Shown here piece after piece: positions 310 through 57,871 of a DNA stretch of 64,000 nucleotides (position 1 is the first letter of the stretch; each line of letters opens with the position of its first letter). The stretch comes from a virus (lineage: Duplodnaviria > Heunggongvirae > Uroviricota > Caudoviricetes): IMG/VR virus record IMGVR_UViG_3300001598_000046, positions 1 through 64,000 of that record; one strand, 5' to 3'. A program made the translations under genes and the position numbers. The notes below the pieces were generated by a model that saw only the letters and a program-made list of their open reading frames with translations, made no database searches and was not told the origin of the DNA.

Positions 310-786
310 TTATTGTTTTATTGCAGCTAATATATCTTGTGCCCAATTCCATTTATTGCTGATATATAGTCGCATTCTCACATCAATCATATCAAGTGAT
401 ACGCCAAGCAATGCTTCATCGGTAGAGTAATCAGTTGATTTTTTATCTGAAAACCAAGCGACTCTAAATATTGAACTCATCGATGGTTTTTCGTGTAATA
501 GATGCCAACCCAATTTTGAGAATTTACCTTTGACATTCTCTAAATCCTTCATAATTTTATTATATGATCTTGTTGTGGTTGGGGGTGCTGTATAGGTAAT
601 ATTTATGCCAGTCCCATCCGGAGATGGGGCGATTGATTTTATTTTTATTGATGGAAATATATCTTTCTTAAGTATTGCGATAATATCCGGCTTAAGTTTT
701 TCCATCTTTTTGGCAAGATCTTTTGTATCCTTAATAGTCTTATCTGGTGCCTCAATATCGAGGAGGCTTTCATATAAACTTTTCAT
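310..786 (-). CDS. leader-family protein 1 (N-terminus MKSLYESLLDIEAPDKT), function unknown
   Basis: 158-aa ORF; shares conserved N-terminal leader with 5 other ORFs in the window, rest of protein unrelated. Confidence 0.55.
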   Translation of the reverse strand: MKSLYESLLDIEAPDKTIKDTKDLAKKMEKLKPDIIAILKKDIFPSIKIKSIAPSPDGTGINITYTAPPTTTRSYNKIMKDLENVKGKFSKLGWHLLHEKPSMSSIFRVAWFSDKKSTDYSTDEALLGVSLDMIDVRMRLYISNKWNWAQDILAAIKQ

Positions 787-865
787 CTTGAAGTAAAATA
801 TATCTATATAATGATTTCATTAATAATTGAAGGACCTGACTTAAATATATAATCTCTTAATGGTC

Positions 866-1354
866 TCATTTATAATAATTTAATAATTTTTCAAAAACAT
901 CATAACATAATGACCCATCAAGATCAAATCGTATAAAAACTTTAGTACCATTATGATGCATATATATAATACGCAATGCAAAATTAACCATATGTGTTTT
1001 GGTATTCTCACAATTCCAAAGATATTCATCATAATCTTCGTGGTGCCAATCCTTGAAATATGGTACATATTGATATTGTTTCGAAAATTCACCTTTTATC
1101 TGATTTGCAAATGAACTCAATATATCTTTACGTTGCTGATTTGTAAGTGCATTGGCTTCAAGAATAATACTCTTCGTTGTAATTAATTTTCCATTACCCT
1201 CAAGAGCTACGTGTGCAGTCTTAATATATTTTTTAGGGACTGCAGTTTTATAGATCTCAATAATCTTTTCCTTCTGCAGGTCAAAATCCTTTGCATTACT
1301 CATCGTTTTGTCTGCATATGTAGTACTTAACAGACTTTCATATAATGTTTTCAT
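866..1354 (-). CDS. leader-family protein 2 (N-terminus MKTLYESLLSTTYADKT), function unknown
   Basis: 162-aa ORF directly upstream of family member 1; same leader pattern. Confidence 0.55.
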   Translation of the reverse strand: MKTLYESLLSTTYADKTMSNAKDFDLQKEKIIEIYKTAVPKKYIKTAHVALEGNGKLITTKSIILEANALTNQQRKDILSSFANQIKGEFSKQYQYVPYFKDWHHEDYDEYLWNCENTKTHMVNFALRIIYMHHNGTKVFIRFDLDGSLCYDVFEKLLNYYK

Positions 1355-1381
1355 ACATATATAATAATAAAAGAGTCCCCA

Positions 1382-3142
1382 TTAGGAGACCCTTTTTACT
1401 CTTACATCAAATTTTTCACTCTTGAATAATTTATATTTTGATCTACCTTGGTCAACCAACTTACCTGTTGGAAAATCATCTACCAAATCATATAGGTAGT
1501 ATTTTTCCTTATCATTGGCAAGACAGAGACCACGACCCAAACTTTGCTTATTGATAATTGGTGACTTAAATGATTGCGCAAATACTCCATAATCGAGATT
1601 CTTAAATGTCAACCCGGTACCAACACAACCATAACTTGCAACCAAAATCGCCGCTTTATCATTGAGAAGTTTTTCCTTAATCTGCTCACGTTTCTTATCT
1701 GATGTTTGGCCAGTGATAAGATATATTGGTCTATCAGGGAACCACTCAATAATTCTTGAATGGAGGTATTTGAGATAACTGGTATGATGTGCAAATACGA
1801 TGCAATTCTTTTCGAACCCATTCAATAAATCTCTTAATACTTCCAATCTCTTTTGATCTCGGTGAAGGACCATTTGTTCAAGAAGTAATAAGTTACTACC
1901 ACGATCCTTGCAAAGATCTATATTATAGTTGAGATAATCATCAATTGTGAGTTTATCAGGACCATCATAATCATCTGCAACTCTTTCCTTCATCTCACGG
2001 AGGACCAATGGAAATTCCTTTTCTAACTCGATAGTAAACTCACGCTTCTCAATTGGTAATTTGCGCTCCACCTTTTCACCATTAATCTTATCAACAACGG
2101 TGACACTATTAAGGTACTCGGCACACTTAATATAATTATCGCGTTGTTCATCAGTCATTGGATGAGGGATATAGATTTGAGTAATATCAATTGGAGTGAT
2201 ATATCCACCATCCATCAATTCTTTTGAACGAATATCCTGAATGGTTGGCCCCATTAATGCGTGGCAACAAAATGATTCAATCGTATCCTCAGGTGGTAAT
2301 GAACCAGAGAAACCAAACTTGACTTTGACGTCCTTTATAAATGGTTGCTCGAGAATAGTATTGATAGATTTGCATTTTAGTGTATGCGCTTCATCAACCA
2401 AGATAACATCATAATCATCAAAGAAATGTGGATCATATTTTGCATTGGTTTTATCAGCACGCATTACAAGACTTTGGAATGTTCCGATGGTTAGATTCGA
2501 ACCCTCCTGAAGCTCACCACCAGCCCATACAGTTTCCATCTTAAAGAACTCTGCATAGTCAGTAAAATCTCCAACTGCTTGCTTAACCAATGATTTGGCT
2601 GGAACAATCATTAGGATCTTTTTGGCTCCTTGTTTTTCCATCAAATAACGGAAAACCATATAAGCAACCAAAGTTTTACCAGCACGTGTTGCCAACTGAC
2701 TCAATGATTGACGATATTTGAGGATGAGCCAAGCAGCACGATATTGATATTCATATGGGCAAAGTGATATCTCCCAAGAATTGACATACTCCTTCCACTC
2801 TTCAAAAGACATATTGAATCCTGTGTACTTGAAGTAATTGAATTGTTCAGGAAGTTGGAGAACGATATTCTTTTTTTGACACCACAATTGAATATTCCTC
2901 CACAAACCACTATGGCAGTAGTAGAGGACGCGGCCCATTTTTGTATGTTTCTTTTTTAGGAATATTTCAGGAGTTGGTGTACCCTTAAATGATGGCAAAA
3001 AATGATGAGATGGAATCTTATTGAGAAAATCTTCAAGATTTGGTGTCTTATGTTTCTTACCTTTTTGAGATTGTAATTCTAATTCATCTCCAATAAAGAA
3101 GATGTTACGCATATCATTTGGGTTATACTTAAGCTCTATCAT
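1382..3142 (-). CDS. superfamily-2 DEAH-box DNA helicase
   Basis: Motif I ATRAGKTLVA, motif II ILVDEAHTLK, motif VI-like QSLGRGLCLA; 586 aa. Confidence 0.8.
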   Translation of the reverse strand: MIELKYNPNDMRNIFFIGDELELQSQKGKKHKTPNLEDFLNKIPSHHFLPSFKGTPTPEIFLKKKHTKMGRVLYYCHSGLWRNIQLWCQKKNIVLQLPEQFNYFKYTGFNMSFEEWKEYVNSWEISLCPYEYQYRAAWLILKYRQSLSQLATRAGKTLVAYMVFRYLMEKQGAKKILMIVPAKSLVKQAVGDFTDYAEFFKMETVWAGGELQEGSNLTIGTFQSLVMRADKTNAKYDPHFFDDYDVILVDEAHTLKCKSINTILEQPFIKDVKVKFGFSGSLPPEDTIESFCCHALMGPTIQDIRSKELMDGGYITPIDITQIYIPHPMTDEQRDNYIKCAEYLNSVTVVDKINGEKVERKLPIEKREFTIELEKEFPLVLREMKERVADDYDGPDKLTIDDYLNYNIDLCKDRGSNLLLLEQMVLHRDQKRLEVLRDLLNGFEKNCIVFAHHTSYLKYLHSRIIEWFPDRPIYLITGQTSDKKREQIKEKLLNDKAAILVASYGCVGTGLTFKNLDYGVFAQSFKSPIINKQSLGRGLCLANDKEKYYLYDLVDDFPTGKLVDQGRSKYKLFKSEKFDVRVKRVS

Positions 3143-6542: not shown

Positions 6543-7874
6543 CTAATTTATCTTTGATACCGCATCAAATAATACATCAGGATTAATATTATATTTGACC
6601 TGATTACGCTGCATTTGTTCAATTACTGATTGGAGAATTTGGCTGATACGCGCTATTGATAATCCCTCCTGAGCAGCAATCTCTTTTGGTTCTAATTCAC
6701 GTGGCATACCAATACCAAACTTCTTGAGGAACACTGAACGATCTCTTGGTTTGACACCATCCAATAATTTATCAAGACCATTCTTGAATATATCATATGC
6801 CTCGGCAGCTTCCATATCGGAAACGTGGTCATCCTCCATATTCAATATATCACTAAACTTTGTATCATTATCATCACCGATTGGTGCATCAATATCCAAT
6901 GTCACCTCCTTACGATATGATCCATACTTGAGTTTATCATTATATATATCCGACTTTGGTTTCTTAACCAATCGAGAATAATTATCTATCTCAATCAAGA
7001 TATATGCGCGGATCCACATAAATGCCACAGAGTTGAATGTGGCATTTTTGACATTATGCTTGACCCAAGCAATAACATCATTTCTCATAAATGGTTTCCA
7101 AGTTATTGATGACCAATTTGATGGGATTGGAGTAGCCTCCATATCCTTCAATTCATCATCATTCTTTTGTTCTGTTGATTCGGCAATAGCAATAGATGCG
7201 AAGGCTTTGACAAATTTTTTTCGTATCCCACCATATTTGAGGTATTGTTGGATCTTATTAATAATTTCACCACCATTGGCATTTTCAGGTAATTCCTCCA
7301 ATGCTTCTAACATATCTTCCTTGAGTTTGGCTCTATTTGGATCATATTTTTTGAATGATTCAATCAGGCCATAATTGCCGGCGGAAATAAGTTCCTCCAA
7401 ACTCAAACCCAATCCCTGATATCCTTTGGCAATACTGATAACAGTTTTAAGGTTCATCTCAATAAGTTTATCTCTATTCTCCTCACAATATTCAATATTA
7501 TAGTTATTACCATTCTTATCATATGCCTTACTTACATCACGAAAATATTGTTGTAATGTTCCACGTTCAGCATCAGGGAGCATAGCCTTACTCGTTAATG
7601 CTTCTGCCGCAGAGGATAATGGAATATCATTACTGAGACTATATCTAATAACCGCCGATATATAGAATGATGCATCGGTTTGTGGCTTGAGCTTTATATA
7701 TTTGTTATATGACTCATACAAATCCGGGAGTGAATCAAAAACCGCTTCATTTGTTTTATCTTCATACTCATCAATGAGTTCAACATTGTTCTTCTTTAGA
7801 TTGTCAAACTTCTTCTCAAAAGTTTCATAAACCATCTCATATCTTTCGTATTTTTCATATAACAAATATATCAA
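6543..7874 (-). CDS. RNA polymerase sigma-70 family factor (regions 2 and 4 present, insertion between 2.2 and 2.3)
   Basis: Region 2.2 GNYGLIESFKKYDP; region 2.3/2.4 FNSVAFMWIRAYILIEI..RLVKKP (cf. FSTYATWWIRQAITRAI..RTIRIP); region 4.2 HTH FGIGMP..EIAAQEGLSIARISQILQSVIEQM. Confidence 0.65.
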   Translation of the reverse strand: MIYLLYEKYERYEMVYETFEKKFDNLKKNNVELIDEYEDKTNEAVFDSLPDLYESYNKYIKLKPQTDASFYISAVIRYSLSNDIPLSSAAEALTSKAMLPDAERGTLQQYFRDVSKAYDKNGNNYNIEYCEENRDKLIEMNLKTVISIAKGYQGLGLSLEELISAGNYGLIESFKKYDPNRAKLKEDMLEALEELPENANGGEIINKIQQYLKYGGIRKKFVKAFASIAIAESTEQKNDDELKDMEATPIPSNWSSITWKPFMRNDVIAWVKHNVKNATFNSVAFMWIRAYILIEIDNYSRLVKKPKSDIYNDKLKYGSYRKEVTLDIDAPIGDDNDTKFSDILNMEDDHVSDMEAAEAYDIFKNGLDKLLDGVKPRDRSVFLKKFGIGMPRELEPKEIAAQEGLSIARISQILQSVIEQMQRNQVKYNINPDVLFDAVSKIN

Positions 7875-7889: not shown

Positions 7890-10800
7890 TTAGTCATTAT
7901 TATCGGTTTCTGGAATTGCCTCACAATGAATGACTTCCATATCAACTTCATTATTATCCAAGAAGCCTGCCAACTCAAATGTGTGTTCGTTTGCGCCGAG
8001 TTTTTCGAGTTCATCCTTTTCTTTCCATAAGAGCTCAACTTTCTCAAGTTTTACGATACCCTCCTTATTTGGTCTCGACATTTTGACAAGACACTTGAAT
8101 ATCTCTTCGAATTTCTTACGGATCGTTTCCATTGTATATTGCGCCATATTAATCTTGACTCTATCATCAGATTCTTTGCGAGCATAACTCATTGCATAGT
8201 TACTAATGAAATTCATCACATCCACCTTCTTGACCTTATCATATTGGCAGAAATCATATATATGGTTCATATAGTCTTGAATTGGAATATCCAAACGATG
8301 GTTCTTCTCATTATATACAAGATTAATAAGAAGTTTGATACGTTTGATGGCTGCAAAATTGAATGAACGATTCTTATTTCTACAAAAATCAAAAATATCC
8401 TTAATATCTTCTACCATATATTGTTTTGACATACTTACGAAGATTGGAACCACCTTTTCGAATACTTCAATATTCTTAACAATCATTACCTTTTTATTGG
8501 CATCCTCCTTCCAATCATCTCCCTTACGGATCTCATAAAGACCCTGAAGAACATCGTGGTAGATTGACAAACGATCCTCAGTAATGAGATCCATCAACTC
8601 CTCAACATGTGATGTATTGGCTGCCATTCTATCATCATACGCAAGCTTAACCATATTTTTGAGATCAGAGAATATCTCACCATCCTCAAGCTTGAATCCA
8701 CCCAAATCTTTTGATGTTACCTCATAACCATAAGCCATCATACCCTTCATAAGTACCGGTAATTGCTGGACATATTCTCTATATTTGCGCTCAAAATATA
8801 TGACCTTATAAGCGATTTCATTGAGGTAGTATTTATTTTCCACCTCATTATATTCAATAAATTTATTATCGTGAATGATTGATGCAACCAATGAATTATA
8901 CTTATATTCAATAGGGTTACGTTCGATCATTGAGTTACATAAACGAAGAATGGATTGCACATCTTTTATCTCTTCATCATTCAATTTGAAGTTCATTTGT
9001 CTAAATTTATGGATACTACGACTATTTCCATCTGCATCATTTTTTGAGATATATAGACGAATGAATAGGTCATTTGAACGAAGACGATTGGCAAACTGTT
9101 CAACCTCCTGAGGCATCATCAAATCATCAAAATAGATATTGAATCTGAATTTATCCAATATATCCACACCCACGGATAGATAGTTTGAGCACATAAGAAT
9201 TTGTGTATCCTTAATTGTCTTCTCAAAGTTCACATCATCCATAAACTCCTCGCCAAGATTCGACTTCTTGTAATATTTGAGGTTAATTTCATTGAACTCA
9301 CAATACTCATGTTCCATAAAATATTGGACAGCTGCTTTGACCTGATCGGAGAATAACGTACCTTTATTGGTAGGGAATAGTACGCGCCGACCCTCATATA
9401 TATCTTTAGCCATTGCGCGACACATATGATAGAAGAGATCATTTGGTGTTTCTACCATATTGACGAGGAACTCCTTTTTACGAATATCTTCCTTAATAAC
9501 CTTCAAATGAACTATATCAGGGAAGAATACTGTCTCGCCACTTGGTGTACCCGACATTAATATAATTGGCACTTCAGTATTACGGATCATCTCAACAATT
9601 TTTGACATTACTGGACGATACTCAGATTGGAACATCAAGTGTGACTCATCAATAATGATGTAATCAAAACCATTAGCCTTGATATCCATCAAGTTCATAT
9701 ATGAGAACTTATCAATGGTCATACTAACACCATTTGTCATATCCAAACGTGGTTTGCGCGATCCATACGAATAATACCAATCTTTCTCACCTTCAACCTT
9801 TGATTTGATGGTTGACGTAAATGGCATAACCATAATGACTTTCTTGCCATCTTTGACAAGGCTCTTAATCATCTCAGTCTTACCAACACCGGCACCCGCT
9901 TCAATCAATGTTACTCTCCCAATATTATCAAGCAATTGCCATTTGATATTACCCAAATACTCATCTTTTGTTATATAGAAGGTCTTATTGAATTTTGATT
10001 CATGAATAAGTGTTGGATTATCAATTTTATCAACACTATTGAATAATGAACCTTCATCCAACGAAGTATCCTGAATATTGAGTTTGATCTTGAAGCCGTG
10101 TTGAGTGTTAAGTCTATTCACAGCCCAAACATCAACTGGTTTCTCGTGACGTGCTGCCGTTACACAGTCTGCCTGCAACTCCTTATCCGAAATATTATTC
10201 GAACATACCATACGGAGATACTTATATCCTTGCTCCAATCCATACAACTGCACCAACGTATTGGCCAAACGCCATCTTTCGTGGTGCTTATAGTGAACCT
10301 TATTGTGTGTATCAGTTGTGAGTTCCGCAGCCTCCTTAACATCAATCTTCAAATCATCACCATTATCCTCTTCAAACCATTCCCAACGCTTAAATATCTC
10401 CTTTAGATCAGGATATGTAACCCAATCAATATCAGGATGTCCAAGATCCTCAACATTATCGAAGTTAATATATATGAAATCTTCGAAAAATCTTGTACTG
10501 ATCATTGGATGAGCATCATAACCAATGAATGCACCTTGTTGTGGTTTGAACATTGCAAGGTCCATCCACTTCAATAAATCATCCTTACCAAACCCAAGTC
10601 TTTCCATTGCACTCAGGCAAGATATATATACGAATGAATATTTGTGGCGGAAGTTGGTAAGATATAGGAGTTTCTTACGGTGACCATCCTTTTGATCGGC
10701 CTCTGCCACAGTAATTTTGGTATAGATATGGAGGCCCTTACCTGAGCTTGATAGTGTTGCCCCCAAGAACCAGTTACATTTATGTAGGCAATTGAATATA

Positions 10801-11219
10801 TGTACTTTAAGTTCTTTTGCAATAACCTCATCCTTAATATCCATATCAATCACCTGAAAACCATTCCAAAGTTCAAATGCTTTCTTACCGATTGGTCTCT
10901 CACCATTTGAGGTGCTATAGATGACTTTTCGGTTAATTTTGGTACAATCCTTATTCGTTGGTGAAATAATGGTCTTAACCAACTCCTCCAACGTACAAGA
11001 TATACCTTGTGATTGTTTAATATTCGTGCAAATAGTGGCTTGGCACTCCCTCAAACGTTTACTAAATTGTTCTCTCTCCTCCTCACTACATTCCATATAA
11101 TCGGGGCTTGAGAAGATCTCCTGAGCCCAATGCTGTTTCCACGATAGGCTCGTTGGAGAGTTCATTACACGATATGCTTGTAATGATTGTTCGAGAGTTA
11201 TATCTTTTGGTCCATTCAT
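7890..11219 (-). CDS. bifunctional replicative primase-polymerase (AEP) / helicase
   Basis: N-terminal AEP motif SSSGKGLHIYTKI (SGxGxHxY); central Walker A EAGAGVGKTE and Walker B/DExH IIIDESHLM; 1109 aa. Confidence 0.6.
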   Translation of the reverse strand: MNGPKDITLEQSLQAYRVMNSPTSLSWKQHWAQEIFSSPDYMECSEEEREQFSKRLRECQATICTNIKQSQGISCTLEELVKTIISPTNKDCTKINRKVIYSTSNGERPIGKKAFELWNGFQVIDMDIKDEVIAKELKVHIFNCLHKCNWFLGATLSSSGKGLHIYTKITVAEADQKDGHRKKLLYLTNFRHKYSFVYISCLSAMERLGFGKDDLLKWMDLAMFKPQQGAFIGYDAHPMISTRFFEDFIYINFDNVEDLGHPDIDWVTYPDLKEIFKRWEWFEEDNGDDLKIDVKEAAELTTDTHNKVHYKHHERWRLANTLVQLYGLEQGYKYLRMVCSNNISDKELQADCVTAARHEKPVDVWAVNRLNTQHGFKIKLNIQDTSLDEGSLFNSVDKIDNPTLIHESKFNKTFYITKDEYLGNIKWQLLDNIGRVTLIEAGAGVGKTEMIKSLVKDGKKVIMVMPFTSTIKSKVEGEKDWYYSYGSRKPRLDMTNGVSMTIDKFSYMNLMDIKANGFDYIIIDESHLMFQSEYRPVMSKIVEMIRNTEVPIILMSGTPSGETVFFPDIVHLKVIKEDIRKKEFLVNMVETPNDLFYHMCRAMAKDIYEGRRVLFPTNKGTLFSDQVKAAVQYFMEHEYCEFNEINLKYYKKSNLGEEFMDDVNFEKTIKDTQILMCSNYLSVGVDILDKFRFNIYFDDLMMPQEVEQFANRLRSNDLFIRLYISKNDADGNSRSIHKFRQMNFKLNDEEIKDVQSILRLCNSMIERNPIEYKYNSLVASIIHDNKFIEYNEVENKYYLNEIAYKVIYFERKYREYVQQLPVLMKGMMAYGYEVTSKDLGGFKLEDGEIFSDLKNMVKLAYDDRMAANTSHVEELMDLITEDRLSIYHDVLQGLYEIRKGDDWKEDANKKVMIVKNIEVFEKVVPIFVSMSKQYMVEDIKDIFDFCRNKNRSFNFAAIKRIKLLINLVYNEKNHRLDIPIQDYMNHIYDFCQYDKVKKVDVMNFISNYAMSYARKESDDRVKINMAQYTMETIRKKFEEIFKCLVKMSRPNKEGIVKLEKVELLWKEKDELEKLGANEHTFELAGFLDNNEVDMEVIHCEAIPETDNND

Positions 11220-11323
11220 ATATAGTGTATATTCTATATCAGATTAATATATGCGCTTGCAACGTTATATTTATGTGGCTGGTATTTATTATATAGGTAT
11301 AGAAAAATATTTAAGAAAAAGAT

Positions 11324-11908
11324 ATGGCTAATTTGAAAGCGTATATGCCTGTTGAAGAAGTAATTGCAAAGGGCTACATCACTGATGTTGAGATATGTGC
11401 GAAACTTAAAGCTCGCAAACTCGATTTGGAAGACCCAAGAGTAGCTGCTTGCGTTACACAACCAGAGGCTTACAAGGCAATCTATGTTGCTCCAGTTGAT
11501 GATCCAACAACTCCTAATCGTGATGAGTCCATAAAGGATAGCACAACACAAGATTACGAAAATGCATTGGATAACAAGGCGGAGAAAGATGCAGCATACA
11601 CCACAGATCAAGATTCTGAAAACGATATCAAATTCGATATCATACTCAACAATGAGCGTTCCACAACTGGTGAACGTAAGAATTACAGCTGGAAGGGTTC
11701 AACAACTGACTTGACTGTTGCTGATATTTTCAAGAAATTGCGTACAAAGAAGGTAGATAATTCATACCTCTACTGGACATCGATGGATGGTATGAAGAAG
11801 TTGACCGTAAATGAGTTGGCTCTTACCGGAGACGCAATGCTTGAGTTCTTTAAGGCACCTCAGGGTGGTACCATCCGTGAGTTCTTTATCAATGATCCAA
11901 GCATATAA
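11324..11908 (+). CDS. hypothetical acidic protein
   Basis: 194-aa ORF, first gene after divergent intergenic region 11220-11323. Confidence 0.45.
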   Translation: MANLKAYMPVEEVIAKGYITDVEICAKLKARKLDLEDPRVAACVTQPEAYKAIYVAPVDDPTTPNRDESIKDSTTQDYENALDNKAEKDAAYTTDQDSENDIKFDIILNNERSTTGERKNYSWKGSTTDLTVADIFKKLRTKKVDNSYLYWTSMDGMKKLTVNELALTGDAMLEFFKAPQGGTIREFFINDPSI

Positions 11909-11921
11909 TTGACGAACAATT

Positions 11922-12113
11922 ATGAAACCACTATTTTCATTCCTTGAAGAGGCTGGTATTGGTCCAGCAGGAGCAGCCACACCGGGTAATACGATGGGTA
12001 TGGGTAATCCAACCGCAGATGATGGTTCAGGAAAAGGTTCAGAGCCTTTGACTGCAAAATCAGAAACTGAAAAACCACGTAAGAAACGCCGTAAAAAAGG
12101 TGAGGAGGAATAA
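11922..12113 (+). CDS. small protein with Gly-rich N-part and Lys/Arg-rich C-tail
   Basis: 63 aa ending KPRKKRRKKGEEE. Confidence 0.3.
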   Translation: MKPLFSFLEEAGIGPAGAATPGNTMGMGNPTADDGSGKGSEPLTAKSETEKPRKKRRKKGEEE

Positions 12114-12130
12114 TTATGTATATCAAATAA

Positions 12131-12161
12131 AAAAGGAGGTCCTTTCGGATCTCCTTTTTTT
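12131..12161. terminator. bidirectional hairpin terminator
   Basis: GGAGGTCC tttc GGATCTCC flanked by A-run and T-run, between convergent genes. Confidence 0.5.
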
Positions 12162-12177
12162 GTGTTCGTTCGTTTGG

Positions 12178-13425
12178 TTAGAACGGTGCGTCAGCGTCTT
12201 GTGCCTCATTTGCAGGTGCGGCAGGAGCAGCTGGGGATGTAGCTGCAGGTGCGTCATCAACCTTAATGTTCTTCAAGAGGATAAAGTCAATCCATCTCTG
12301 AACCTTCTCAGAAGTCTCAGCGTCCCAAGGCTTGTAAGCAATTTCGTCTTCGATGTTGATAACCTTTGCCTCATTCTTGAGGTAGTCAAGAGCGATACCT
12401 GTCAACGCGCGAACCTTATTGTAGAGCTCAGTACCCTCCTTGATCACCTTACCATCCTTATCCTTGACAGGACCGGCGATCTTAGCAGCAGCCTCTTCAC
12501 GTTTCTTAGCAGCCTTTGCAGTATCTGCATCCTTACGAGCGTTGGCATACTCTTCGAGGATCTCCATCTGTGCCTCGTCAAAGAGTGGAGTACCATCGAT
12601 TTTGCGAATTGGTTCGAACTCGGTTGCGAAATCGCAGGTAGCGTACGAGATGTTACGATCGCGAACCACTGGGTTTGGATCATCACCTGGCTTGACATTG
12701 ATCTCGAGTGGGTAACCAAGCACCCAGCTCATCAGATTGATAGCCTTCTTGCCCTTTTTCTTGTCCTCCTCTGAAGGATACTGCTTAGCCTCGAGCTTCT
12801 CACGGATATCCTTTGGAAGCTTCATCAGCATAATGCGGCCAACCAATTCAGGTTTGTTCTCATCCTCGAGAATCTGAACCAATACCCAAGAAGATGTGGT
12901 ATTATCGAAGTTCTCCTTCGCATAATTGAGGATCAATTTACCGAGTTCAGTGTTCTTGAACTTAGCGTCCCAAGCCTCTTTACCACGGCCCTCAACGGCA
13001 TTGAACTCTGCGAGCATTGCTGCACGCTTGTTTGCATCGTTTGGCCAAGCCTTCATAGCATAGCGATCTGCGAAACCATCGAGTGCGAGGAACGCCTCAC
13101 TTGATGCCTTGAAGAGTGGGCAGATACGGCGGTTGTCCTTTGTGTCGAGCATACCATTGATCTCGAGAGTTCCATCAGGACCACCCTGGAGATACCAAGC
13201 TGTTTTCTTGATGATTGAACCCTTCGATGTTGGGTTGTACGGATTGAAGATCACTCTGACCTTTGCGCGGTAGATACCATCCTCAGACTTTGAGTCACGA
13301 GGGTGAGTTTTGTACACGTTAGGGTTAGTTTTTTGAGAATCGTTGTTCTCGAATGGATTGCCACCCATAATGTCGCCATCCATCATTGCGTCAAGTACGT
13401 CTTGCTGCTGTTCTTTGTTTGCCAT
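12178..13425 (-). CDS. candidate single-stranded DNA-binding protein (SSB-type acidic C-terminal tip)
   Basis: 415 aa; Pro/Ala-rich flexible linker PAATSPAAPAAPANEAQ followed by terminal DADAPF (cf. E. coli SSB DDDIPF, T7 gp2.5 acidic tail ending in F); locally higher GC. Confidence 0.4.
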   Translation of the reverse strand: MANKEQQQDVLDAMMDGDIMGGNPFENNDSQKTNPNVYKTHPRDSKSEDGIYRAKVRVIFNPYNPTSKGSIIKKTAWYLQGGPDGTLEINGMLDTKDNRRICPLFKASSEAFLALDGFADRYAMKAWPNDANKRAAMLAEFNAVEGRGKEAWDAKFKNTELGKLILNYAKENFDNTTSSWVLVQILEDENKPELVGRIMLMKLPKDIREKLEAKQYPSEEDKKKGKKAINLMSWVLGYPLEINVKPGDDPNPVVRDRNISYATCDFATEFEPIRKIDGTPLFDEAQMEILEEYANARKDADTAKAAKKREEAAAKIAGPVKDKDGKVIKEGTELYNKVRALTGIALDYLKNEAKVINIEDEIAYKPWDAETSEKVQRWIDFILLKNIKVDDAPAATSPAAPAAPANEAQDADAPF

Positions 13426-35748: not shown

Positions 35749-35846
35749 AGTTTCTTAATAACGATCTAATTAAATATATGGTATGGTGGGAGATATTTTA
35801 GAAGATTCGTAAGGAATTTTATTGATTCAGGTTTATTATATATACA

Positions 35847-37441: not shown

Positions 37442-37780
37442 ATGGTTGATATAAATTTATCGGAAGGAGCACCAATTATTAATGATAATGTGAGCCTTAT
37501 TATCCAACAAATCGATACACTTTTCGATACTGCTTATCGAGAGGTGCACGGTGCTCCGTATTATGGTACTCGTTATGATGAGTTCCTATATAATATGAAT
37601 ATGTCAAATGATGCCATCGCATATCAGGTTGAATGTGATTTGGCTGATATTAATTTATTCGGTTTTATACCTACAGTTAATGTGACAATTCTTGAGGGTA
37701 CAATTAATGATATTATCTTGATATCAATTACTTTATCAAAAAATGATGAAGTTTATGAAAAAACTTATAAGATACAATAA
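37442..37780 (+). CDS. baseplate wedge protein, gp25/GPW family
   Basis: 112 aa; IIQQIDTLFDTAYREVHGAPYYGTRYDEFLYN fits the gp25/GPW core (GER..P.fG..l..l.F). Confidence 0.5.
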   Translation: MVDINLSEGAPIINDNVSLIIQQIDTLFDTAYREVHGAPYYGTRYDEFLYNMNMSNDAIAYQVECDLADINLFGFIPTVNVTILEGTINDIILISITLSKNDEVYEKTYKIQ

Positions 37781-39464: not shown

Positions 39465-39932
39465 ATGAAATCATTAATTGAAAGTCTTTTGGATGCTGGT
39501 GTGGCTGATAAAACTTTGGATAAAAATATCAAGAATTTTGAAGAGGTAATGTATATCCGCGAGTTGGTTCATAAATATCTTTACGAGCCAACTATTGGTT
39601 TTTCTTACGATGTTACCCCTAAAACCGGTGGTTCTCATTGGTTTAATGAAGAATATGGTGAATATACCATCAAGATGAAAGTTAGTGAACTTAACAGATT
39701 ATATCGTTTAATGGGAAGAGAATTATTGCAACATTTTGGTCAAGATAAGATGCTGGTCGAATTAGATTCTGAACGCGGTGTCAGATATGTTCTTGAATTT
39801 AGATTCAAGATGTTTGAAAAATGTGATAGAAATGGTTGTCTCCCATATCCTAATATAAAAGTGATAATTGCAAAGAACAGTATGGGTAAAATGTTCACAT
39901 ACGTAAAACTACCAAAATTCTTTATACAATGA
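39465..39932 (+). CDS. leader-family protein 3 (N-terminus MKSLIESLLDAGVADKT), function unknown
   Basis: 155 aa; conserved leader, unrelated body. Confidence 0.55.
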   Translation: MKSLIESLLDAGVADKTLDKNIKNFEEVMYIRELVHKYLYEPTIGFSYDVTPKTGGSHWFNEEYGEYTIKMKVSELNRLYRLMGRELLQHFGQDKMLVELDSERGVRYVLEFRFKMFEKCDRNGCLPYPNIKVIIAKNSMGKMFTYVKLPKFFIQ

Positions 39933-42451
39933 TAAAATTTATTGACATAAATACTCGTCATACATATAATGGTGATAAACCGTATGTTCATTGGTTTGAT
40001 GGCCAACAAAGTACTGGCCTAATCTACACCAAAAACCTCTATATCCTTTCGGACAAGGCATCACTTAATATTAGTATTCCACAAAATGATATTTTCCATC
40101 TTCTTGATATTACGAATATGGAAGAAGTTATTATAGATGGTTTTGATTATAAGGATATTACAAAAATGTACAAGAATAACTTGACATTAACTGGAGTAGC
40201 TTATGATTCAACTCATTATATTTATGTAGTATATCTTGCTTGTAGTAGTTCGATGGCTCTTGAAGCTCGTGAAGATGTTACCATTGATAATGCAGCTTAT
40301 ACCATTGGTGCCGACTTTTTTGCAGAACGTGAAGAGCTCAAAATAAATATTGCCAATCAAGGTTGCGAGATACCCGAAACAATCCAACGCGCTATCTATG
40401 ATAGTGATGTACACGAAGAGATGATGGATAATATCCTCCTCAATCGTAAGTATAAAGAATTGATGATGAATTTCATTGATATTGTTGGAAATAAAGGTTC
40501 GTATAAATCACTTCTCAATTCTCTTAATTGGTTCGAATATGGTGATCTTCTCAAACTCCACGAATTTTGGAAACATACTGAGTGGGGTAGAGTAATATAT
40601 AATGATCAAGATTTTTGCCAAGTATTGAGAGATAAGATGGATAATATCCTCGTCAATTTCTCAAAGACTACATATATGGGTATTTATTGTGCGATGGAAA
40701 GAGAAACAGGTAACCTCGATCCAATTGAGATTTTAGACCATCAGGAACAATTCTTACCTGAGCCAATACCCGAGCTCGAAATGATTATATTTAAGTGGTC
40801 TATTAATGAGATGGCATTGAAGATGACATTACTTGGTAACTTTTTCGAAACATACTTTATGCCAATCCATACAGACCTTATTCATAGTACTCTTGAGGAT
40901 ATAGTATATACAGATTCAGTTAAGTTGATACCGGGTGGGCAAATGAGACGTGAAGATTATGTAATCCATAATATTCCTGTTATTTGCAACGTAAAAGATG
41001 GTGATTGTTTTGTATTGGAGAATGCTGAAACTCGCGTTGAACCCGATACACATTTTGTTACTGAAACTGATGATTATATGAAGCATACCATATTTGGTAT
41101 TAACGATGTTGCTGTTTCAGGTATGGGTGCAGTATCTAATGATTTTGTCAAGAAATTCTATCTCAATAGATATAATGGTATCGGTGTCATCATACCATTT
41201 GAATTTGAGATGGATGCCTGTGATGATGATATTATTTTTCGTGAAGATTTCGCACTTCGTAGTGATGCAACACTCCAATGGGAGCACCTTATCTTTACTG
41301 AGAAATATGCTGCGGTTGATGGTAAATTTAAGATCAAATTCAATTTACTTGTCACTCACGACTACGAATATGATCTCCGTGTGATATTCCGCTCAAATTG
41401 TGGAAATATTTATATTAAGAGAGTCAAATTCAATGTAATAGATATAAGACGTTCATTATTATCTATTTATAAGATTATGCCAAATCTTGATAATAAAGAG
41501 TATCATAATAATGATTTTATGTTCAAGCACTATAATGGATATAGTGATGGATTCCCTTATATCTTACCAGTGGTATTCTCAACATATTATACTTACCATA
41601 AATATTTCATACCATATAATCCAAATATTGATGAAAATTATGGAGTTAAGCTTAAACAACTCATCTCAATATATGGTAAATATATGATAAATAGTAAATT
41701 CGAATCTCTTGATGGTTTGGTTGATACGGCATTACGGCAGCTCCCACTCGATGATAATACAATCACGGCACAGAAAATTTACAATGCAAAGGGTTTACCT
41801 GCAGGAATAACACAACACGATAGAGATCTTATTATGGGTATAACTATATATTTGAGTTATCCTGAAAATTCAAAATTAACGAGATCGTGGGTATATTTAT
41901 GCAAATATTATACAAGATATCGTAAAGAGAAATTTGTACAGGATGCGAGTGGAGAATGGAAACCAACGGATGGTCTCCCATCATTCTATACATTTATCGC
42001 CGATTCATTTGCAACTCGAGATGGTTGTACTTTACCATTCCCAAATAATATTATTAATGATCTTGAACAATATTTTCTAAAGATCTACAATATCAAACAC
42101 GTCTTAGTTCGCAATGAACTTGTATATATTCCATTTGACCACCACCTTGAACCACTTAATCGTGAAACGATAGAGGGCCTTACAATTAATGAAGATGAAA
42201 CACTTTGTGTGATACCTGATATCAAATATCTCAAACGTATTACCGAACACGAATGGGTATTCCATAATGCATCAACAGGACACGATTATATTATGCCAAC
42301 AATCAAAGAACCATTTGTGGCATCAAAAGATCCAAATTATCCAATTCTTGATCCAGGGTATTACGATATCATATTCAGATATAAATTGGCGACAAATGCG
42401 GATACAATTCACGAAATTTGTCTCAAGAGTGCATTTATTCAACGCGCATAA
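39929..42451 (+). CDS. large hypothetical protein (candidate tail fibre/baseplate distal component)
   Basis: 840 aa; last gene of plus-strand structural block. Confidence 0.45.
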   Translation: MIKFIDINTRHTYNGDKPYVHWFDGQQSTGLIYTKNLYILSDKASLNISIPQNDIFHLLDITNMEEVIIDGFDYKDITKMYKNNLTLTGVAYDSTHYIYVVYLACSSSMALEAREDVTIDNAAYTIGADFFAEREELKINIANQGCEIPETIQRAIYDSDVHEEMMDNILLNRKYKELMMNFIDIVGNKGSYKSLLNSLNWFEYGDLLKLHEFWKHTEWGRVIYNDQDFCQVLRDKMDNILVNFSKTTYMGIYCAMERETGNLDPIEILDHQEQFLPEPIPELEMIIFKWSINEMALKMTLLGNFFETYFMPIHTDLIHSTLEDIVYTDSVKLIPGGQMRREDYVIHNIPVICNVKDGDCFVLENAETRVEPDTHFVTETDDYMKHTIFGINDVAVSGMGAVSNDFVKKFYLNRYNGIGVIIPFEFEMDACDDDIIFREDFALRSDATLQWEHLIFTEKYAAVDGKFKIKFNLLVTHDYEYDLRVIFRSNCGNIYIKRVKFNVIDIRRSLLSIYKIMPNLDNKEYHNNDFMFKHYNGYSDGFPYILPVVFSTYYTYHKYFIPYNPNIDENYGVKLKQLISIYGKYMINSKFESLDGLVDTALRQLPLDDNTITAQKIYNAKGLPAGITQHDRDLIMGITIYLSYPENSKLTRSWVYLCKYYTRYRKEKFVQDASGEWKPTDGLPSFYTFIADSFATRDGCTLPFPNNIINDLEQYFLKIYNIKHVLVRNELVYIPFDHHLEPLNRETIEGLTINEDETLCVIPDIKYLKRITEHEWVFHNASTGHDYIMPTIKEPFVASKDPNYPILDPGYYDIIFRYKLATNADTIHEICLKSAFIQRA

Positions 42452-52746: not shown

Positions 52747-52861
52747 ATAATTCGAATAAATTTATGTATAAATAATAACGAATTACAGAATTTTTTAACA
52801 AAAAACCTTACTAAACTTTGTTTGAATCATTATAATATAGTCAAATATATATGATGAACAT

Positions 52862-54317: not shown

Positions 54318-54324
54318 TAGAAAA

Positions 54325-54349
54325 GGGACTCTCATTGAGTTCCTTTTTT
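54325..54349 (+). terminator. rho-independent terminator
   Basis: GGGACTC tcatt GAGTTCC then TTTTTT. Confidence 0.5.
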
Positions 54350-54396
54350 ATTTTATATTACACCCAAATGATCACTGGATTATTATTTATACATAA

Positions 54397-56109
54397 TTGA
54401 TTACAAATATGAATTGCGCAATAAAGAGAATAATTCAATTCCATAATGCATATGTTCCTGGTCCAATTCAAATCAAGAATCAAATGGGTCAGGACATTAC
54501 AACATACTGCCAATATTCTTGGTCGAATGATATGGTATGTTGGACCAATTGGGTTACATATGATATGTATCTCAAAATTTGTGGGCAATTGAAGGATGAA
54601 ACATATATACGTATTCTTATACAGGATTCAATAGGAATTGTTAAGATCCACGATGTTGCTACAGATTGTTATTCCGTGACGTTGGATCTCGATAACCCTT
54701 TTGAGGTAACAATTTGTAATGATAACCTCTTCAATCCTTATGCAAATCTCGATTGTGCCATTAAACTTCAACAACAAATGGCTGATTCTATAATCTGTAT
54801 GTTTGGTATACCCGTATATTATTTTAGAGTTAAGCCAGACCCAACTACAGCTGACTATACATTTAAGGAGTATTTACTTCATAATATTGAATCAGTTAAG
54901 CAGATCAAAATGATGATTCCTGAGGGCACTATGCCAAGTTCAAATCCTAAATTTAATGCACTCGATTTTGATTGGGAGACTGATTGGGATGTTGAGATTG
55001 GTAAAAATGAATTTGCGAGAGCATTTGGAGATGGCCAAGTTCCAAAAGTTCGTGATTTTATCTATATTCCGATGATGAAACGTATGTGGGATGTTAATTC
55101 AGCATATGATGAGAAGAATGAAAATCTTATGTGGATATCAACAACTTGGAAACTTAGCCTTGTTAAGTATGAGGATGCTACAAACGTAAATGGTACTCCT
55201 GAAATGGAAAGCCTTATTGATTCACTCATACCACATACCTACGAAAATACCTTTGGTGAAAAGGAGAGAACATTATGGGAGCGAACAACTGGTTCAACTC
55301 AAATAAAATCTCCTGATCACGCATATACAAATTTATATGATATATCTATGGGAGACGCAATAAGACAGGCGTATTCGAAAAATGAAATAAATATTGTCGA
55401 TTATCAGTACAACCACAATAGTATGGTGGTTACACGTAATATATATAAATTCAAAACACCATTGGCAAAGGTAACATATCAAAAAGGTTATTGTGGTGCT
55501 AATGGAACACTTGCATTTATATTGCAAACAACTGGAACATCACGAGACGAATTAATATGTAGTAATTGTCGTCAAAAAACAGTATGCCCATACTATAGTG
55601 CTGAAGCTGGTGCAAAATGTTCCGTACCATCAACAATTATCAAATGTGGGCCAATTGATGTTAATCTTACACTTAAACCAATTGCTGGTGGTAATTGTTA
55701 TGAGATTTCTTGTGGTGATATAAAGGGTAATCTGAAGCTTTTTGCAAGTTATCTCGTTATCATCCGTTGGAACCGTCAAAATTATACTGTATCGATGGAA
55801 TGTTACGAGCATATACATCGCACAAATATCCCAACATATATGCTCAAACCTGAGATGTACTCATTTAATGCCACACCAACAATATCTGTAACATCACAAT
55901 ATAATCTCGATTATGATATAACGGAAGAGCAAGATATGTTTATCCAAGCATATCCTTGTCTCCTGACAAATATCAAATTATACAATATTGATTTGGGTCG
56001 TGAAGGTGCGATTAAAGAATCTCTTAAATATGTAACACAACATAAAAATATCATAATTAATGACCTCGCTCGTCCAATCGAGAGTGGCCAGGGTTATACA
56101 GCAAGATAA
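54397..56109 (+). CDS. hypothetical protein (570 aa)
   Basis: Long ORF; its last ~63 codons are duplicated as a fragment at 57165..57350. Confidence 0.5.
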   Translation: MITNMNCAIKRIIQFHNAYVPGPIQIKNQMGQDITTYCQYSWSNDMVCWTNWVTYDMYLKICGQLKDETYIRILIQDSIGIVKIHDVATDCYSVTLDLDNPFEVTICNDNLFNPYANLDCAIKLQQQMADSIICMFGIPVYYFRVKPDPTTADYTFKEYLLHNIESVKQIKMMIPEGTMPSSNPKFNALDFDWETDWDVEIGKNEFARAFGDGQVPKVRDFIYIPMMKRMWDVNSAYDEKNENLMWISTTWKLSLVKYEDATNVNGTPEMESLIDSLIPHTYENTFGEKERTLWERTTGSTQIKSPDHAYTNLYDISMGDAIRQAYSKNEINIVDYQYNHNSMVVTRNIYKFKTPLAKVTYQKGYCGANGTLAFILQTTGTSRDELICSNCRQKTVCPYYSAEAGAKCSVPSTIIKCGPIDVNLTLKPIAGGNCYEISCGDIKGNLKLFASYLVIIRWNRQNYTVSMECYEHIHRTNIPTYMLKPEMYSFNATPTISVTSQYNLDYDITEEQDMFIQAYPCLLTNIKLYNIDLGREGAIKESLKYVTQHKNIIINDLARPIESGQGYTAR

Positions 56110-56110
56110 T

Positions 56111-56974
56111 ATGAAATCACTTTACGAAAGCTTACTCGGTATCACAAATGATGATATTGATAAAACAAACCTGAAACTTCTATGGAATCAATTACAATTG
56201 GATATTAAGGGTACGGAGAAAAAACCACGTATTAATTTTCTACAAATCAAAAATAATAATGCTGGAGAACTCTCCTGTTATTGCTCAATTCCACAAGGGA
56301 GATTGGGTAGAGGCCCACAAATTGATGATATACCAAGTTTAACAAAACTTTTTCCTGCTGGTATTGAAGCAAAAAGATTACAAATTAGTAAAAATTGTGA
56401 TCATAAATTATCTGAACTTGCGGCACTTAATATCAAAGTAAACGAATATAAGATTGATGGTTACGATACTGAGGAAAGTTTAGCAAAATTGGATATTCAA
56501 GTACCATCAGTATACTGTGATGCCGCTGCACTTATCACAGATAATTTACTTCAACGAATATCCAAATATACCGACAAGATTAGACTTGATGCTTGTATGG
56601 AATTTCACGGTTGGAGAAAAATGGAAGATTTGAAGAAATTATCTAATTGTCCATTTGATGTTATGATCATTAATAAAGGTGCATATCTTTTTGGATTGGA
56701 TCAACCAAGAAAAAATACTGTGACAATCGGAGATTACCTTGAAGGTCATCTTAATATTAATGGAACTCCAAGAGAGGGGCAATTTGTATATCGTGATAGT
56801 TCTCAGCAACAACATTATAATGGGTTTAAGAGTAAACTTGCCGATTGGATTAAACGAAATCCAAAAACAACTCTTATAATGAGTTGGGGTGGTACAATGG
56901 AAAAAATTTCATTGGACTCAAAGGGTGAACTCACCACAACAAAAATAACCGATCGAGAAATTAATAAATTATGA
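56111..56974 (+). CDS. leader-family protein 4 (N-terminus MKSLYESLLGITNDDIDKT), function unknown
   Basis: Start ATG 1 nt after stop of upstream gene (ORF track extends it upstream to 56060 in the same frame). Confidence 0.55.
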   Translation: MKSLYESLLGITNDDIDKTNLKLLWNQLQLDIKGTEKKPRINFLQIKNNNAGELSCYCSIPQGRLGRGPQIDDIPSLTKLFPAGIEAKRLQISKNCDHKLSELAALNIKVNEYKIDGYDTEESLAKLDIQVPSVYCDAAALITDNLLQRISKYTDKIRLDACMEFHGWRKMEDLKKLSNCPFDVMIINKGAYLFGLDQPRKNTVTIGDYLEGHLNINGTPREGQFVYRDSSQQQHYNGFKSKLADWIKRNPKTTLIMSWGGTMEKISLDSKGELTTTKITDREINKL

Positions 56975-57162
56975 AAAGCCTTTATGAAAGTTTATTAGGA
57001 TCTACTGAAGATACAATTGATACCACGAATAAGAAATATGCAGAATATGTAGATTTCTGTGATAAATCAAAAGAATTGTATGATGCCTTTTGGTCTGAAT
57101 TTGAACACAAGGCCATCAAACTCGGTATAGCCAAACGAGACTTCAATAATAGTACGATATAA
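56971..57162 (+). CDS. leader-family protein 5, short (N-terminus MKSLYESLLGSTEDTIDTT)
   Basis: 63 aa; ATGA overlap with member 4; possibly truncated. Confidence 0.4.
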   Translation: MKSLYESLLGSTEDTIDTTNKKYAEYVDFCDKSKELYDAFWSEFEHKAIKLGIAKRDFNNSTI

Positions 57163-57164
57163 CT

Positions 57165-57350
57165 GAGGAGCAAGATGTATTTATCCATGCATATCCTTGC
57201 CTTCTTACCAATATTAAACTTTATAATATTGATCTTGGTAAAGATGATTCGATTAAAGAATCGTTAAAATACGTAACAAAAAACAAAAATATTATAATCA
57301 ACGACCTTGCACGTCCAATGGAAAGTGGTCTTGGTTATGCAGTAAAATAA
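57165..57350 (+). pseudogene. start-less duplicated fragment of the 3' end of gene 54397..56109
   Basis: Translates TEEQDVFIHAYPCLLTNIKLYNIDLGKDDSIKESLKYVTKNKNIIINDLARPMESGLGYAVK vs gene C-terminus TEEQDMFIQAYPCLLTNIKLYNIDLGREGAIKESLKYVTQHKNIIINDLARPIESGQGYTAR; no in-frame start. Confidence 0.5.
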
Positions 57351-57352
57351 TT

Positions 57353-57871
57353 ATGAAATCTCTTATAGAAAGTATTTTGGATTCAAATCTTGCTGACAAA
57401 GGTACGATCAGTGCTGAAAAGGCTCAAAAGGCAATGAGCATAATTCGTGACGTTTTTGAAAAATTGCTTAATACCGACAAATTCACAATAGAAGTTTGGA
57501 TACCGGAACAACCTGATAAAGTTCGTGGTGTTATGAAATATAAATTCAACGCAAGTGCTCCTAACGATACTAAAAATGACTATATTGAGCAGAGAAAATA
57601 TTATCAAGAAGTCATTGTCAGTAGTGTCAAGGAACTGAAAAAGATGAATAAGTATCTCGACATGGATCCTCAGGAGGCATATAGTAGCCGCCCATACGAG
57701 AACAGAAATTTGTTTTTGACCAACTCACAACCAATAGTCAACTACACGGATTCAATGATTAGTGTAATGGGTAACTCCAATAGTGATTTTTTCGATATGT
57801 TAGTTGGTGATTGCTTCGTATCTACCCTTGAAGAAGTAATTAAAAAGAATAAAAAGATCATAATTCATTGA
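57353..57871 (+). CDS. leader-family protein 6 (N-terminus MKSLIESILDSNLADKGT), function unknown
   Basis: 172 aa; start 2 nt after stop of the pseudogene fragment, mirroring junction at 56109/56111. Confidence 0.55.
   Translation: MKSLIESILDSNLADKGTISAEKAQKAMSIIRDVFEKLLNTDKFTIEVWIPEQPDKVRGVMKYKFNASAPNDTKNDYIEQRKYYQEVIVSSVKELKKMNKYLDMDPQEAYSSRPYENRNLFLTNSQPIVNYTDSMISVMGNSNSDFFDMLVGDCFVSTLEEVIKKNKKIIIH

Follow-up and report, generated by a model that had tools for sequence, protein, structure and literature searches.

Unrelated proteins of an uncultivated T4-like phage carry a common short N-terminal leader that is probably related to the T4 capsid-targeting sequence

The stretch of DNA analysed here, called the window throughout, comprises 64,000 nucleotides (positions 1 to 64,000) of the IMG/VR virus record IMGVR_UViG_3300001598_000046, a tailed phage of the Caudoviricetes, and contains six open reading frames (ORFs) whose products begin with nearly the same short leader peptide. 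A six-frame regular-expression scan of the whole 64 kb with MK[ST]L[YI]ES[LI]L returned exactly six matches, each at the ATG opening an ORF of 63-287 amino acids (aa). Six such copies cannot be produced by chance. Looser leader patterns gave no extra match in the six-frame scan of the window, and no degenerate copy of the leader was present among the other ~77 window proteins. The original prediction, made from the sequence alone, had listed the same six ORFs with the same coordinates, strands and starts, and the scan bore it out.

Two of the tagged genes form a pair on the minus strand, with a UvsW-like helicase gene upstream. The first gene of the pair, 866-1354 (-), encodes a 162-aa protein beginning MKTLYESLLSTTYADKT, the body of which has an isoelectric point (pI) of 8.4, and the second, 310-786 (-), encodes a 158-aa protein beginning MKSLYESLLDIEAPDKT, with a body pI of 9.6 and no known family. 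The third gene, 39465-39932 (+), encodes 155 aa beginning MKSLIESLLDAGVADKT and has an orphan body of pI 9.0. It is translationally coupled to a gp6-like baseplate wedge gene before it (37780-39462) and to a gene similar to ORF 177 of phage PTm1 after it (39929-42451). A single-sequence AlphaFold model of its product was uninformative, with a predicted local distance difference test score (pLDDT) of 49. The remaining three lie in tandem behind a T4-type neck protein gene, 54409-56109 (+), the conserved upstream anchor of this locus: 56111-56974 (+), starting two bases after the neck gene and encoding 287 aa beginning MKSLYESLLGITNDDIDKT, 56971-57162 (+), encoding 63 aa beginning MKSLYESLLGSTEDTIDTT, and 57353-57871 (+), encoding 172 aa beginning MKSLIESILDSNLADKGT, with a body pI of 6.9. 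In databases the first of these is started at an upstream ATG at 56060 (304 aa). The true start is 56111: the extra codons run into the terminal part of the neck gene, and in the seven full-length orthologues the first residues are those of the leader. The 3' end of the 63-aa ORF abuts a relic neck-gene fragment, described below, which makes truncation of this cassette probable.

Relatives were gathered from IMG/VR and metagenome contigs by a degenerate DNA pattern of the leader, and the fetched loci (L numbers below) were re-scanned. At least 96 distinct leader ORFs were found in contigs of related uncultivated phages. The core genes of the leader-bearing contigs are 35-65% identical to those of the window, and the contigs therefore form one clade with the window phage. 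Across 62 proteins, M1, K2, L4, E6 and S7 are invariant, and the L4-x-E6 motif is kept in all 62, position 5 being free (K, Y, I or L), a pattern consistent with an L-x-E protease motif. Position 3 is S or T, position 8 L or I, position 9 F or L, and position 10 D, S or G, mostly Asp. Weaker conservation extends up to K/R16, and beyond approximately residue 17 the information content equals background. A leader-only profile run against a database of 5.8 billion proteins returned 31 short candidates, which added further leader variants, and 596 Gb of bacterial and archaeal genomes gave scattered, chance-like single matches only, with no family-like ORFs or arrays. The leader strings are absent from the searchable literature, where the T4 capsid-targeting sequence (CTS) alone was returned, and no proteomic data for them were found there.

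The window has a GC content of 36.7% and matched no nucleotide relative among GenBank phages. Its replication and expression genes include a family B DNA polymerase, the UvsW-like helicase, a sigma factor, an RNA ligase and a gp47/SbcD-like nuclease, and its packaging and virion genes include TerL, a gp2-like end protector, a gp4-like head-completion protein, a gp15-like protein, neck proteins and the gp6-like baseplate wedge. No prohead protease, scaffold, portal or major capsid protein (MCP) gene was found within the 64-kb window. Among cultured phages, the closest are PTm1, PTm5 and pT24, which are jumbo phages of Tenacibaculum, and the Sphingomonas phage PAU. Since their TerL proteins are only ~30% identical to that of the window (32% for PTm1, the closest), the window phage is a deep-branching T4-like phage.

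The DNA encoding the leader varies by synonymous codons. In the window, Ser3 is encoded by AGT, TCA, AGC or TCT (Thr, encoded by ACA, in one leader), Leu4 by TTA or CTT, position 8 by CTC, CTG, CTT or TTA (Ile, encoded by ATT, in one leader) and Leu9 by CTC, TTA or TTG; Lys2 is always AAA and Glu6 always GAA. Among the relatives, codons of the AGY class as well as of the TCN class are used for the invariant Ser7, indicating that selection acts on the peptide, as had been proposed from the window codons. The idea of a frozen codon class at Ser7 was rejected, TCN being present in many members. Conservation at the RNA level, in the form of a common 5'-terminal element for translation initiation or regulation on possibly leaderless mRNAs, could draw on the uniform Lys2 and Glu6 codons of the window and on the array-first genes, which are preceded by a terminator hairpin and then by the promoter-like motif TTATTAT[TA]TATA, ending 0-3 nucleotides (nt) before the ATG and thus suggesting very short or absent 5' untranslated regions. 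However, AAA and GAA are preferred codons of this 37% GC genome, most members are operon-internal without a promoter of their own, and the many synonymous differences, with codon-class switches at both Ser7 (AGY/TCN) and Ser3, largely refute this explanation, the least probable of all those considered here.

Past the leader, the proteins are unrelated. After removal of residues 1-20, the six window bodies showed no significant pairwise similarity, the best match being that between the tandem genes 310 and 866 (E=0.017, in a tiny database), and none of the six proteins matched a Pfam or PHROGs family. Among the matches listed, 65 unique proteins either reached 100 aa or were truncated by the end of their contig, and these fell into 44 BLAST body clusters, 38 of which are singletons. 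Tagged proteins range in size from 63 to 323 aa. The only Pfam matches to the relatives' bodies were DUF285/BspA-type leucine-rich repeats (LRR; E=5e-81) and one LRR_4. DUF285 domains are widespread without the leader, which indicates that the tag was joined to pre-existing domains. The median body pI is 7.4, against a proteome-wide 5.7 in the window, with values between 8.4 and 9.6 for four of the six bodies encoded there; those of the T4 internal proteins (IPs) are 9.6, 9.7 and 7.9.

The family of the 56111 protein (w56111) illustrates the contrast between leader and body. Its nine orthologue representatives have bodies that are 32-40% identical and a leader that is ~90% identical; the leader is nearly unchanged in seven, one carries the variant MRSLYETILD, and two were called from an internal Met. 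The AlphaFold model of w56111 has a pLDDT of 82 and a predicted template modelling score of 0.81, with leader residues 1-15 below a pLDDT of 50 and a short helix at residues 4-9, and it shows the leader as a predicted flexible, free tail outside the fold. The model is alpha/beta, and neither DUF285 nor any solved fold was confidently matched by the family. An ordinary fast-evolving paralogue family, in which the leader would be the best-conserved helix of a single fold, could account for the many bodies of 146-205 aa, for the marginal match between 310 and 866 and for the small groups of true paralogues that do exist, such as a pair in L003 and three w56111-like genes in L279. Yet the number of body clusters and the spread of sizes given above, the match of some bodies to DUF285/LRR and not of the w56111 family, the disordered and detached leader in a confident model, and the occurrence of DUF285 without leader make such a family highly improbable. 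Of the conditions that the original prediction had named as capable of overturning it, each one open to computation came out in its favour: the leader is constant over varying bodies in related phages, no known enzyme domain in Pfam or PHROGs begins with it, and the bodies are not paralogues at the profile level, some being DUF285/LRR, the w56111 family alpha/beta and most without detectable relatives.

Variants of the leader were found within and beyond the clade. An internally duplicated leader, such as MKSLKESLFDSKTQTMESLFDKDL with its two ESLFD copies, occurs in L059, L083, L132, L052, L004, L109 and L266 and in protein P0005, indicating that the tag evolves through short duplications and deletions. 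In L279/L280 (ENA k141_500414), positions 9719-12575 hold three tandem w56111-family genes with the leaders MRSLYETILD, MRSLYESILD and MKSLYESILD, and, ahead of them, a 72-aa ORF whose product begins with MKNLSESINE. Close homologues of the window genes are not present on this contig, so that the tag and the w56111 cargo family reach beyond the immediate clade. A Sec, Tat or lipoprotein signal peptide, in which a basic N-region is followed by a hydrophobic core of roughly 7-20 residues, was ruled out by reading the sequence: the leader has no hydrophobic stretch, and it is net acidic (K2, E6, D10, D12) and amphipathic. A different common N-terminus, M(G/S)LLNK(N/S)(E/N)KT, was observed in L177 (IMGVR_UViG_3300014293_000033) at 7227-7796 (-), 10130-10540 (-) and 10527-10958 (-); it may be another lineage-specific tag, or these genes may merely be paralogues. 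In L248, L250, L259, L268 and L274 (IMG/VR), a protein of 924-960 aa has a leader-like start, MKSFKESILLDEAKAKGKVIVVYGGGFQPFHAGH, with Phe at position 4. This protein is a large nucleotidyltransferase-like enzyme and recalls T4 Alt, a large enzyme packaged in the T4 head, although the leader-like start may be a coincidence.

In T4, gp21 cuts the CTS MKTYQEFIAE after L/I-x-E. The positions important for targeting are 4 and 7, those for processing 8 and 10, and the internal proteins of T-even phages are described as diverse anti-defence proteins with the CTS alone in common (PMC8442874, PMC9026906, PMC3012670). With Asp at position 10, processing is blocked and targeting is unaffected (PMC9026906). 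In the T4 record, the leaders read MKTYQEFIAE↓ARVG in IPII, MKTYQEFIAE↓ASVV in IPIII and MKTFKEFTSTTTPVSTITE↓A in IPI (here and below, ↓ stands at the cleavage point or its counterpart).

The case for a relationship to this sequence rests on a longer form of the leader found in the same clade, which is the decisive new evidence. On one 73-kb contig (L249/L270), seven ORFs begin with MKTLNDYI[RKI]E-S[IL]LDDE[DE].LI.. and five with MKTLY----E-SILDDED.L[IV]... The two forms are interleaved in the same tandem arrays, and their segments after the Glu are identical (MKTLNDYIRE-SILDDEDELIG versus MKTLY----E-SILDDEDVLIG). Likewise, a long MKSLSQYIYE-GLFNVDKN adjoins a short MKSLYE-SLFDKDL in L014/L073, a long MKHLKEYINE-GIFDDNIK lies beside short forms in L266 and matches MKSLKE-SLFDDNIK of L023, and MKSFKKYIAE-D adjoins MKSFKESLLE-N in L258. 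Long forms are enriched in leader loci (22 of 829 ORFs versus 3 of 1787; Fisher p=7e-9) and are absent from PTm1 (0 of 373). No gap is needed to align the long form MKTLNDYIRE↓S to MKTYQEFIAE↓A of T4: M, K, T, I8 and E10 are identical, and L/Y, N/Q, D/E and Y/F are similar. T4 IPI itself, beginning MKTFKEFTSTTT, resembles MKTLYESLLSTT, as seen in MKTFKEF-TSTTT of IPI and MKTLYES-LLSTT of the 866 protein. Because the long and short forms share the segment after the Glu and the long form aligns to T4, E6 of the short form corresponds to E10 of the long form and to E10 of T4. By this alignment, the L-[YI]-E at residues 4-6 of the window leaders occupies exactly the position of the T4 I-A-E site of the prohead protease, which strengthens the parallel with the T4 CTS drawn in the original prediction.

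Starts that resemble the T4 CTS were also found by the head modules of other T4-like lineages (MKSYKSFLNE, MKGYREFLNE, MKKYSEFISE, MKTYFDFLNE and MKSFKKYIAE), in ORFs located at 3428-4609 of L171/L173, 12960-13808 of L220, 6721-6957 of L236 and 4842-5916 of L258. In L171, the ORFs starting with MKSYKSFLNE↓N and MKGYREFLNE↓S are found a short distance upstream of the genes for gp4-like, gp2-like and portal proteins, the protease/scaffold and the MCP. These starts suggest that many lineages of the T4 superfamily have the CTS system.

The capsid protein of the clade has the same junction. The small contig L244, on which two leader ORFs lie, also has a gene for a gp23-family MCP with 61-62% identity to those of L175 and L177, contigs that also carry close homologues of window genes. 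In the L244 MCP, the last L/I-x-E before the conserved mature core (GIYATPLNT[LM]G[IM]GNP) is E-I-Y-E↓S-V, and the L244 leaders read S-L-Y-E↓S-I. The same site is I-Y-E↓G in the L175 MCP and I-K-E↓G in that of L177, and long leaders have I-Y-E↓G and I-N-E↓G. In the equivalent region of T4 gp23, the cut falls at L-T-E↓A. The common Phi-Y-E↓S junction (Phi, hydrophobic residue) lends further support to the parallel with T4, and it provides circumstantial evidence that one protease may trim both the MCP and the tagged proteins. S77-type protease/scaffold fusions were found in PTm1, L162 and L171. Searches with MCP homologues and with IMG/VR MCP alignments gave the MCPs of L175, L177 and L244 and no protease on a leader-bearing contig.

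Among the matches listed, 71 of the 96 leader ORFs follow a same-strand ORF in tight coupling. The succession of neck gene and leader-ORF array recurs in L078, L072 and L278, and in L022 and L128 leader ORFs come after a gp2-like gene; in T4, ipI is downstream of genes 4, 2 and 3. Several other arrays adjoin replication genes, namely those for a helicase, a w7890-like helicase/primase and a single-stranded DNA-binding protein.

Promoter-like motifs of the array-first class precede structural genes of the window. Exact copies were found at 35833-35844 (+) before the baseplate operon (TTATTATATATA), at 52767-52778 (-) before the large terminase gene (TTATTATTTATA) and at 54380-54391 (+) before the neck gene (TTATTATTTATA). 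From the last, the neck gene would be transcribed in one operon with the leader ORFs 56111 and 56971, to which the downstream 57353 would probably also belong. Upstream of the 866/310 pair, the segment 1356-1395 (-) contains a GC-rich inverted-repeat-like sequence, terminator-like by analogy with array-first relatives, and the motif TTATTATATATG, which ends 1 nt before the ATG of 866-1354; other array-first members of the family are arranged in the same way. The motif shared with structural genes suggests that the leader ORFs may belong to a late or structural regulon. Another sequence, TTTGTTATATATA, occurs in five exact copies in the window against 0.5 expected (6354, 18986, 29572, 48816 and 63168, all on the minus strand), each ~30-45 nt upstream of a small gene, and looks like a second promoter class one base away from TTATTAT[TA]TATA.

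This gene context bears on two other explanations. The leader might be a docking peptide that fixes interchangeable binding modules on the outside of the virion, at the neck, collar or baseplate, as part of a host-range or adhesion system. Leader ORFs do lie directly behind, and coupled to, neck, baseplate-wedge and gp2-like genes, one body cluster is of the BspA-type DUF285/LRR fold typical of surface adhesins, and the conserved residues 7-16 would stay useful if the tag were never cleaved. However, the intermediate forms tie the leader to the T4 CTS, whose site of action is the interior of the prohead, and the MCP propeptide has the same Phi-x-E↓S junction. Moreover, most bodies are small and monomer-sized (63-300 aa), no fibre or receptor-binding family was detected among them by Pfam or PHROGs, many loci adjoin replication rather than tail genes, and the bodies are biased towards a basic pI like the T4 internal proteins. 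We therefore consider external docking unlikely.

Alternatively, the tag might mark intracellular proteins that never enter the virion, for timed proteolysis, localisation or interaction with a chaperone, and have only its ancestry or form in common with the CTS. Tandem arrays of small hypervariable orphans are typical of host-takeover regions, and several arrays adjoin replication genes, as mentioned above. Such a role is no less unlikely than docking, given the apparent co-transcription with structural genes, the promoter-like motif common to the TerL, neck and baseplate genes, the agreement of the L-x-E↓S junction with the MCP propeptide site and the T4 precedent, in which a leader of this kind acts in the prohead (PMC9026906, PMC3012670).

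The tandem locus behind the neck gene bears a trace of rearrangement. In the segment 57153-57352 (+), the terminal ~62 codons of a neck gene survive as a relic, with 79% nucleotide identity to 55912-56109, mostly synonymous differences and a stop codon of its own, and the leader ORF 57353 follows directly. This relic is a recombination footprint of cassette exchange, in agreement with the earlier view of this locus as tandem and rearranging. Between the neck gene and a kinase gene, L278 has one leader ORF, the window three and L078 three different ones. The simplest reading of these sequences is that homologous recombination between related phages inserts or replaces whole cassettes, with the conserved end of the upstream gene and the leader as anchors.

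Taken together, the leader is probably a relative of the T4 CTS, shortened by four residues and placed on very diverse cargo, and it would thus probably mark a large and rapidly changing set of injected proteins. According to this model, the tagged proteins would be made late, alongside the structural proteins. The N-terminal amphipathic helix (M-K-[ST]-L-x-E-S-[LI]-[LF]-[DGS]) would bind the prohead scaffolding core, so that the protein would be enclosed in the head, where a T4-type prohead protease would cut after L4-x-E6, the equivalent of I-x-E10 of T4 IPII and IPIII. The mature protein would then stay with the DNA in the capsid and be injected into the next host. The bodies would be interchangeable cargo of at least 44 unrelated families, mostly basic or neutral, with a few DUF285/LRR binding modules. 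By analogy with T4 IPI, many of them are likely to be counter-defence or host-takeover factors.

Several observations weigh against this model. The short leader taken alone is statistically weak in comparison with MKTYQEFIAE, ranking in the top ~2% of N-termini. The LRR/DUF285 cargo and the neck and baseplate neighbours also suit external docking. A prohead protease gene was not found in the 64-kb window. Since the two promoter-like motif classes are one base apart, the assignment of the leader ORFs to the late genes is suggestive at most. A whole-genome scan of PTm1 revealed neither the leader nor any common N-terminal tag, and the clade itself is uncultured; as PTm1 has no leader, its literature is unable to test the capsid-targeting idea. 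Position 10 of the leader is mostly Asp, which blocks processing in T4 (PMC9026906), so that cleavage may not occur at all. Finally, a cut at E6 would leave ~10 conserved residues (S-[LI]-[LF]-D-x-[DN]-[LI]-x-x-K) on the mature protein, which a simple T4 model does not explain. The tag could be bipartite, its first six residues (ten in the long form) being a cleaved targeting propeptide and the next ~10 a second, retained and previously undescribed signal, which might, for instance, order the passage of the proteins out through portal and tail or position them on the DNA in the head. We put this forward as a tentative and rather doubtful extension of the model.

Like the T4 CTS, the leader is a short N-terminal peptide (10-19 aa in T4, ~16 here) on unrelated, hypervariable small proteins, and it has the form M-K-[ST]-Phi-x-E with the L/I-x-E motif, its short form resembling IPI. 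As for the T4 internal proteins, the bodies lean towards the basic, and in some genomes the genes lie near gp2/gp4-type genes, like ipI (PMC3012670, PMC9026906). In contrast to T4, the window leader is four residues shorter before the Glu, which gives a predicted propeptide of six residues, the conserved residues continue for ~10 positions past the predicted cut, and position 10 is Asp, Ser or Gly instead of Glu. The genes are often located within structural operons (neck, baseplate), and the predicted cargo is far more diverse, with at least 44 families including DUF285/LRR. The CTS-tagged internal proteins of T4 are non-essential.

In phiKZ, 201phi2-1 and SPN3US, N-terminal propeptides of ejection or inner-body proteins are thought to target the prohead and are removed by a gp21-related protease after the Glu of a three-residue motif, and the SPN3US paralogues gp53 and gp54 have an identical 15-residue N-terminus (PMC5694885). 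However, these giant-phage propeptides are mostly longer than 100 residues, have an S/A-x-E motif, and common N-termini occur on paralogues (PMC5694885). The leader was not assigned to this class, as it is ~16 aa long, has Leu or Ile at P3 and shows no sequence similarity. Phage P1 offers a functional likeness, in that its Dar anti-defence proteins enter the head at assembly and are injected with the DNA (PMC9024508, PMC12810830). Their incorporation depends on an ordered hierarchy of protein-protein interactions, with Hdf/DarA first, and not on a common short leader, and the sequences are not related to those described here. A more distant parallel is conceptual only. Bacterial polymorphic toxins and effectors combine a conserved N-terminal delivery module with unrelated C-terminal payloads that are exchanged by recombination at the module boundary, but they depend on bacterial secretion and have much larger delivery domains.

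Three further features of the window were recorded. The 63-aa ORF at 11922-12113 (+) is a speculative candidate for a seventh member, of the long-form type. It begins with MKPLFSFLEE↓AGIG, fits the T4-like pattern M-K-x-Phi-x-x-F-L-x-E (L4, F7, L8 and E10, followed by Ala) and reads MKPLFSFLEE↓AGIGPAGAATPGNTMGMGNPTADDGSGKGSEPLTAKSETEKPRKKRRKKGEEE. The middle part is disordered and rich in Gly and Pro, the tail, KPRKKRRKKGEEE, is highly basic, and the product could possibly be a small DNA-associated internal peptide. The gene at 27993-28241 (-) encodes an 82-aa protein with an 'HFKCDC' motif and has homologues in L004, L038, L062, L102, L120, L148, L175 and L177; in relatives, this gene repeatedly adjoins leader-ORF arrays directly. 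The gene at 29638-31143 (-) encodes a 501-aa protein with SPFH/Band 7 and flotillin domains (Pfam E=5e-19), an unusual cargo for a phage genome.

Textbooks already cover the T4 CTS and, for T-even phages, the hypervariable loci of internal proteins, and to our knowledge nearly all work on the CTS mechanism has been done in T-even coliphages. Judged by the searchable literature, what appears to be new here is a putative CTS relative in a deep-branching uncultivated T4-like clade, the dimorphism of short and long forms within genomes, the conserved segment after the predicted cut, and the more than 40 candidate cargo families, DUF285/LRR included, with their placement inside structural operons. 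Injected phage proteins act before phage gene expression, and some of those of T4 are dedicated to inhibiting the restriction systems of the host. Because such proteins are small, fast-evolving orphans, they easily escape detection. If the leader works like the T4 CTS, a tag of 10-16 residues would serve as a search key for injected proteins in metagenomes; the search described here gave ~100 candidates of more than 40 families from uncultivated phages, many of them apparently from rumen or gut samples. If the tag is bipartite, it would allow the direct mining of dozens of injected-effector families, including LRR-type binders of host proteins. In practical terms, the leader would offer candidate anti-defence proteins and a packaging tag for engineering phages outside E. 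coli. The CTS mechanism itself would be ancient and widespread across the T4 superfamily, with a tag that evolves through small insertions and deletions and yet keeps its Phi-x-E junction.

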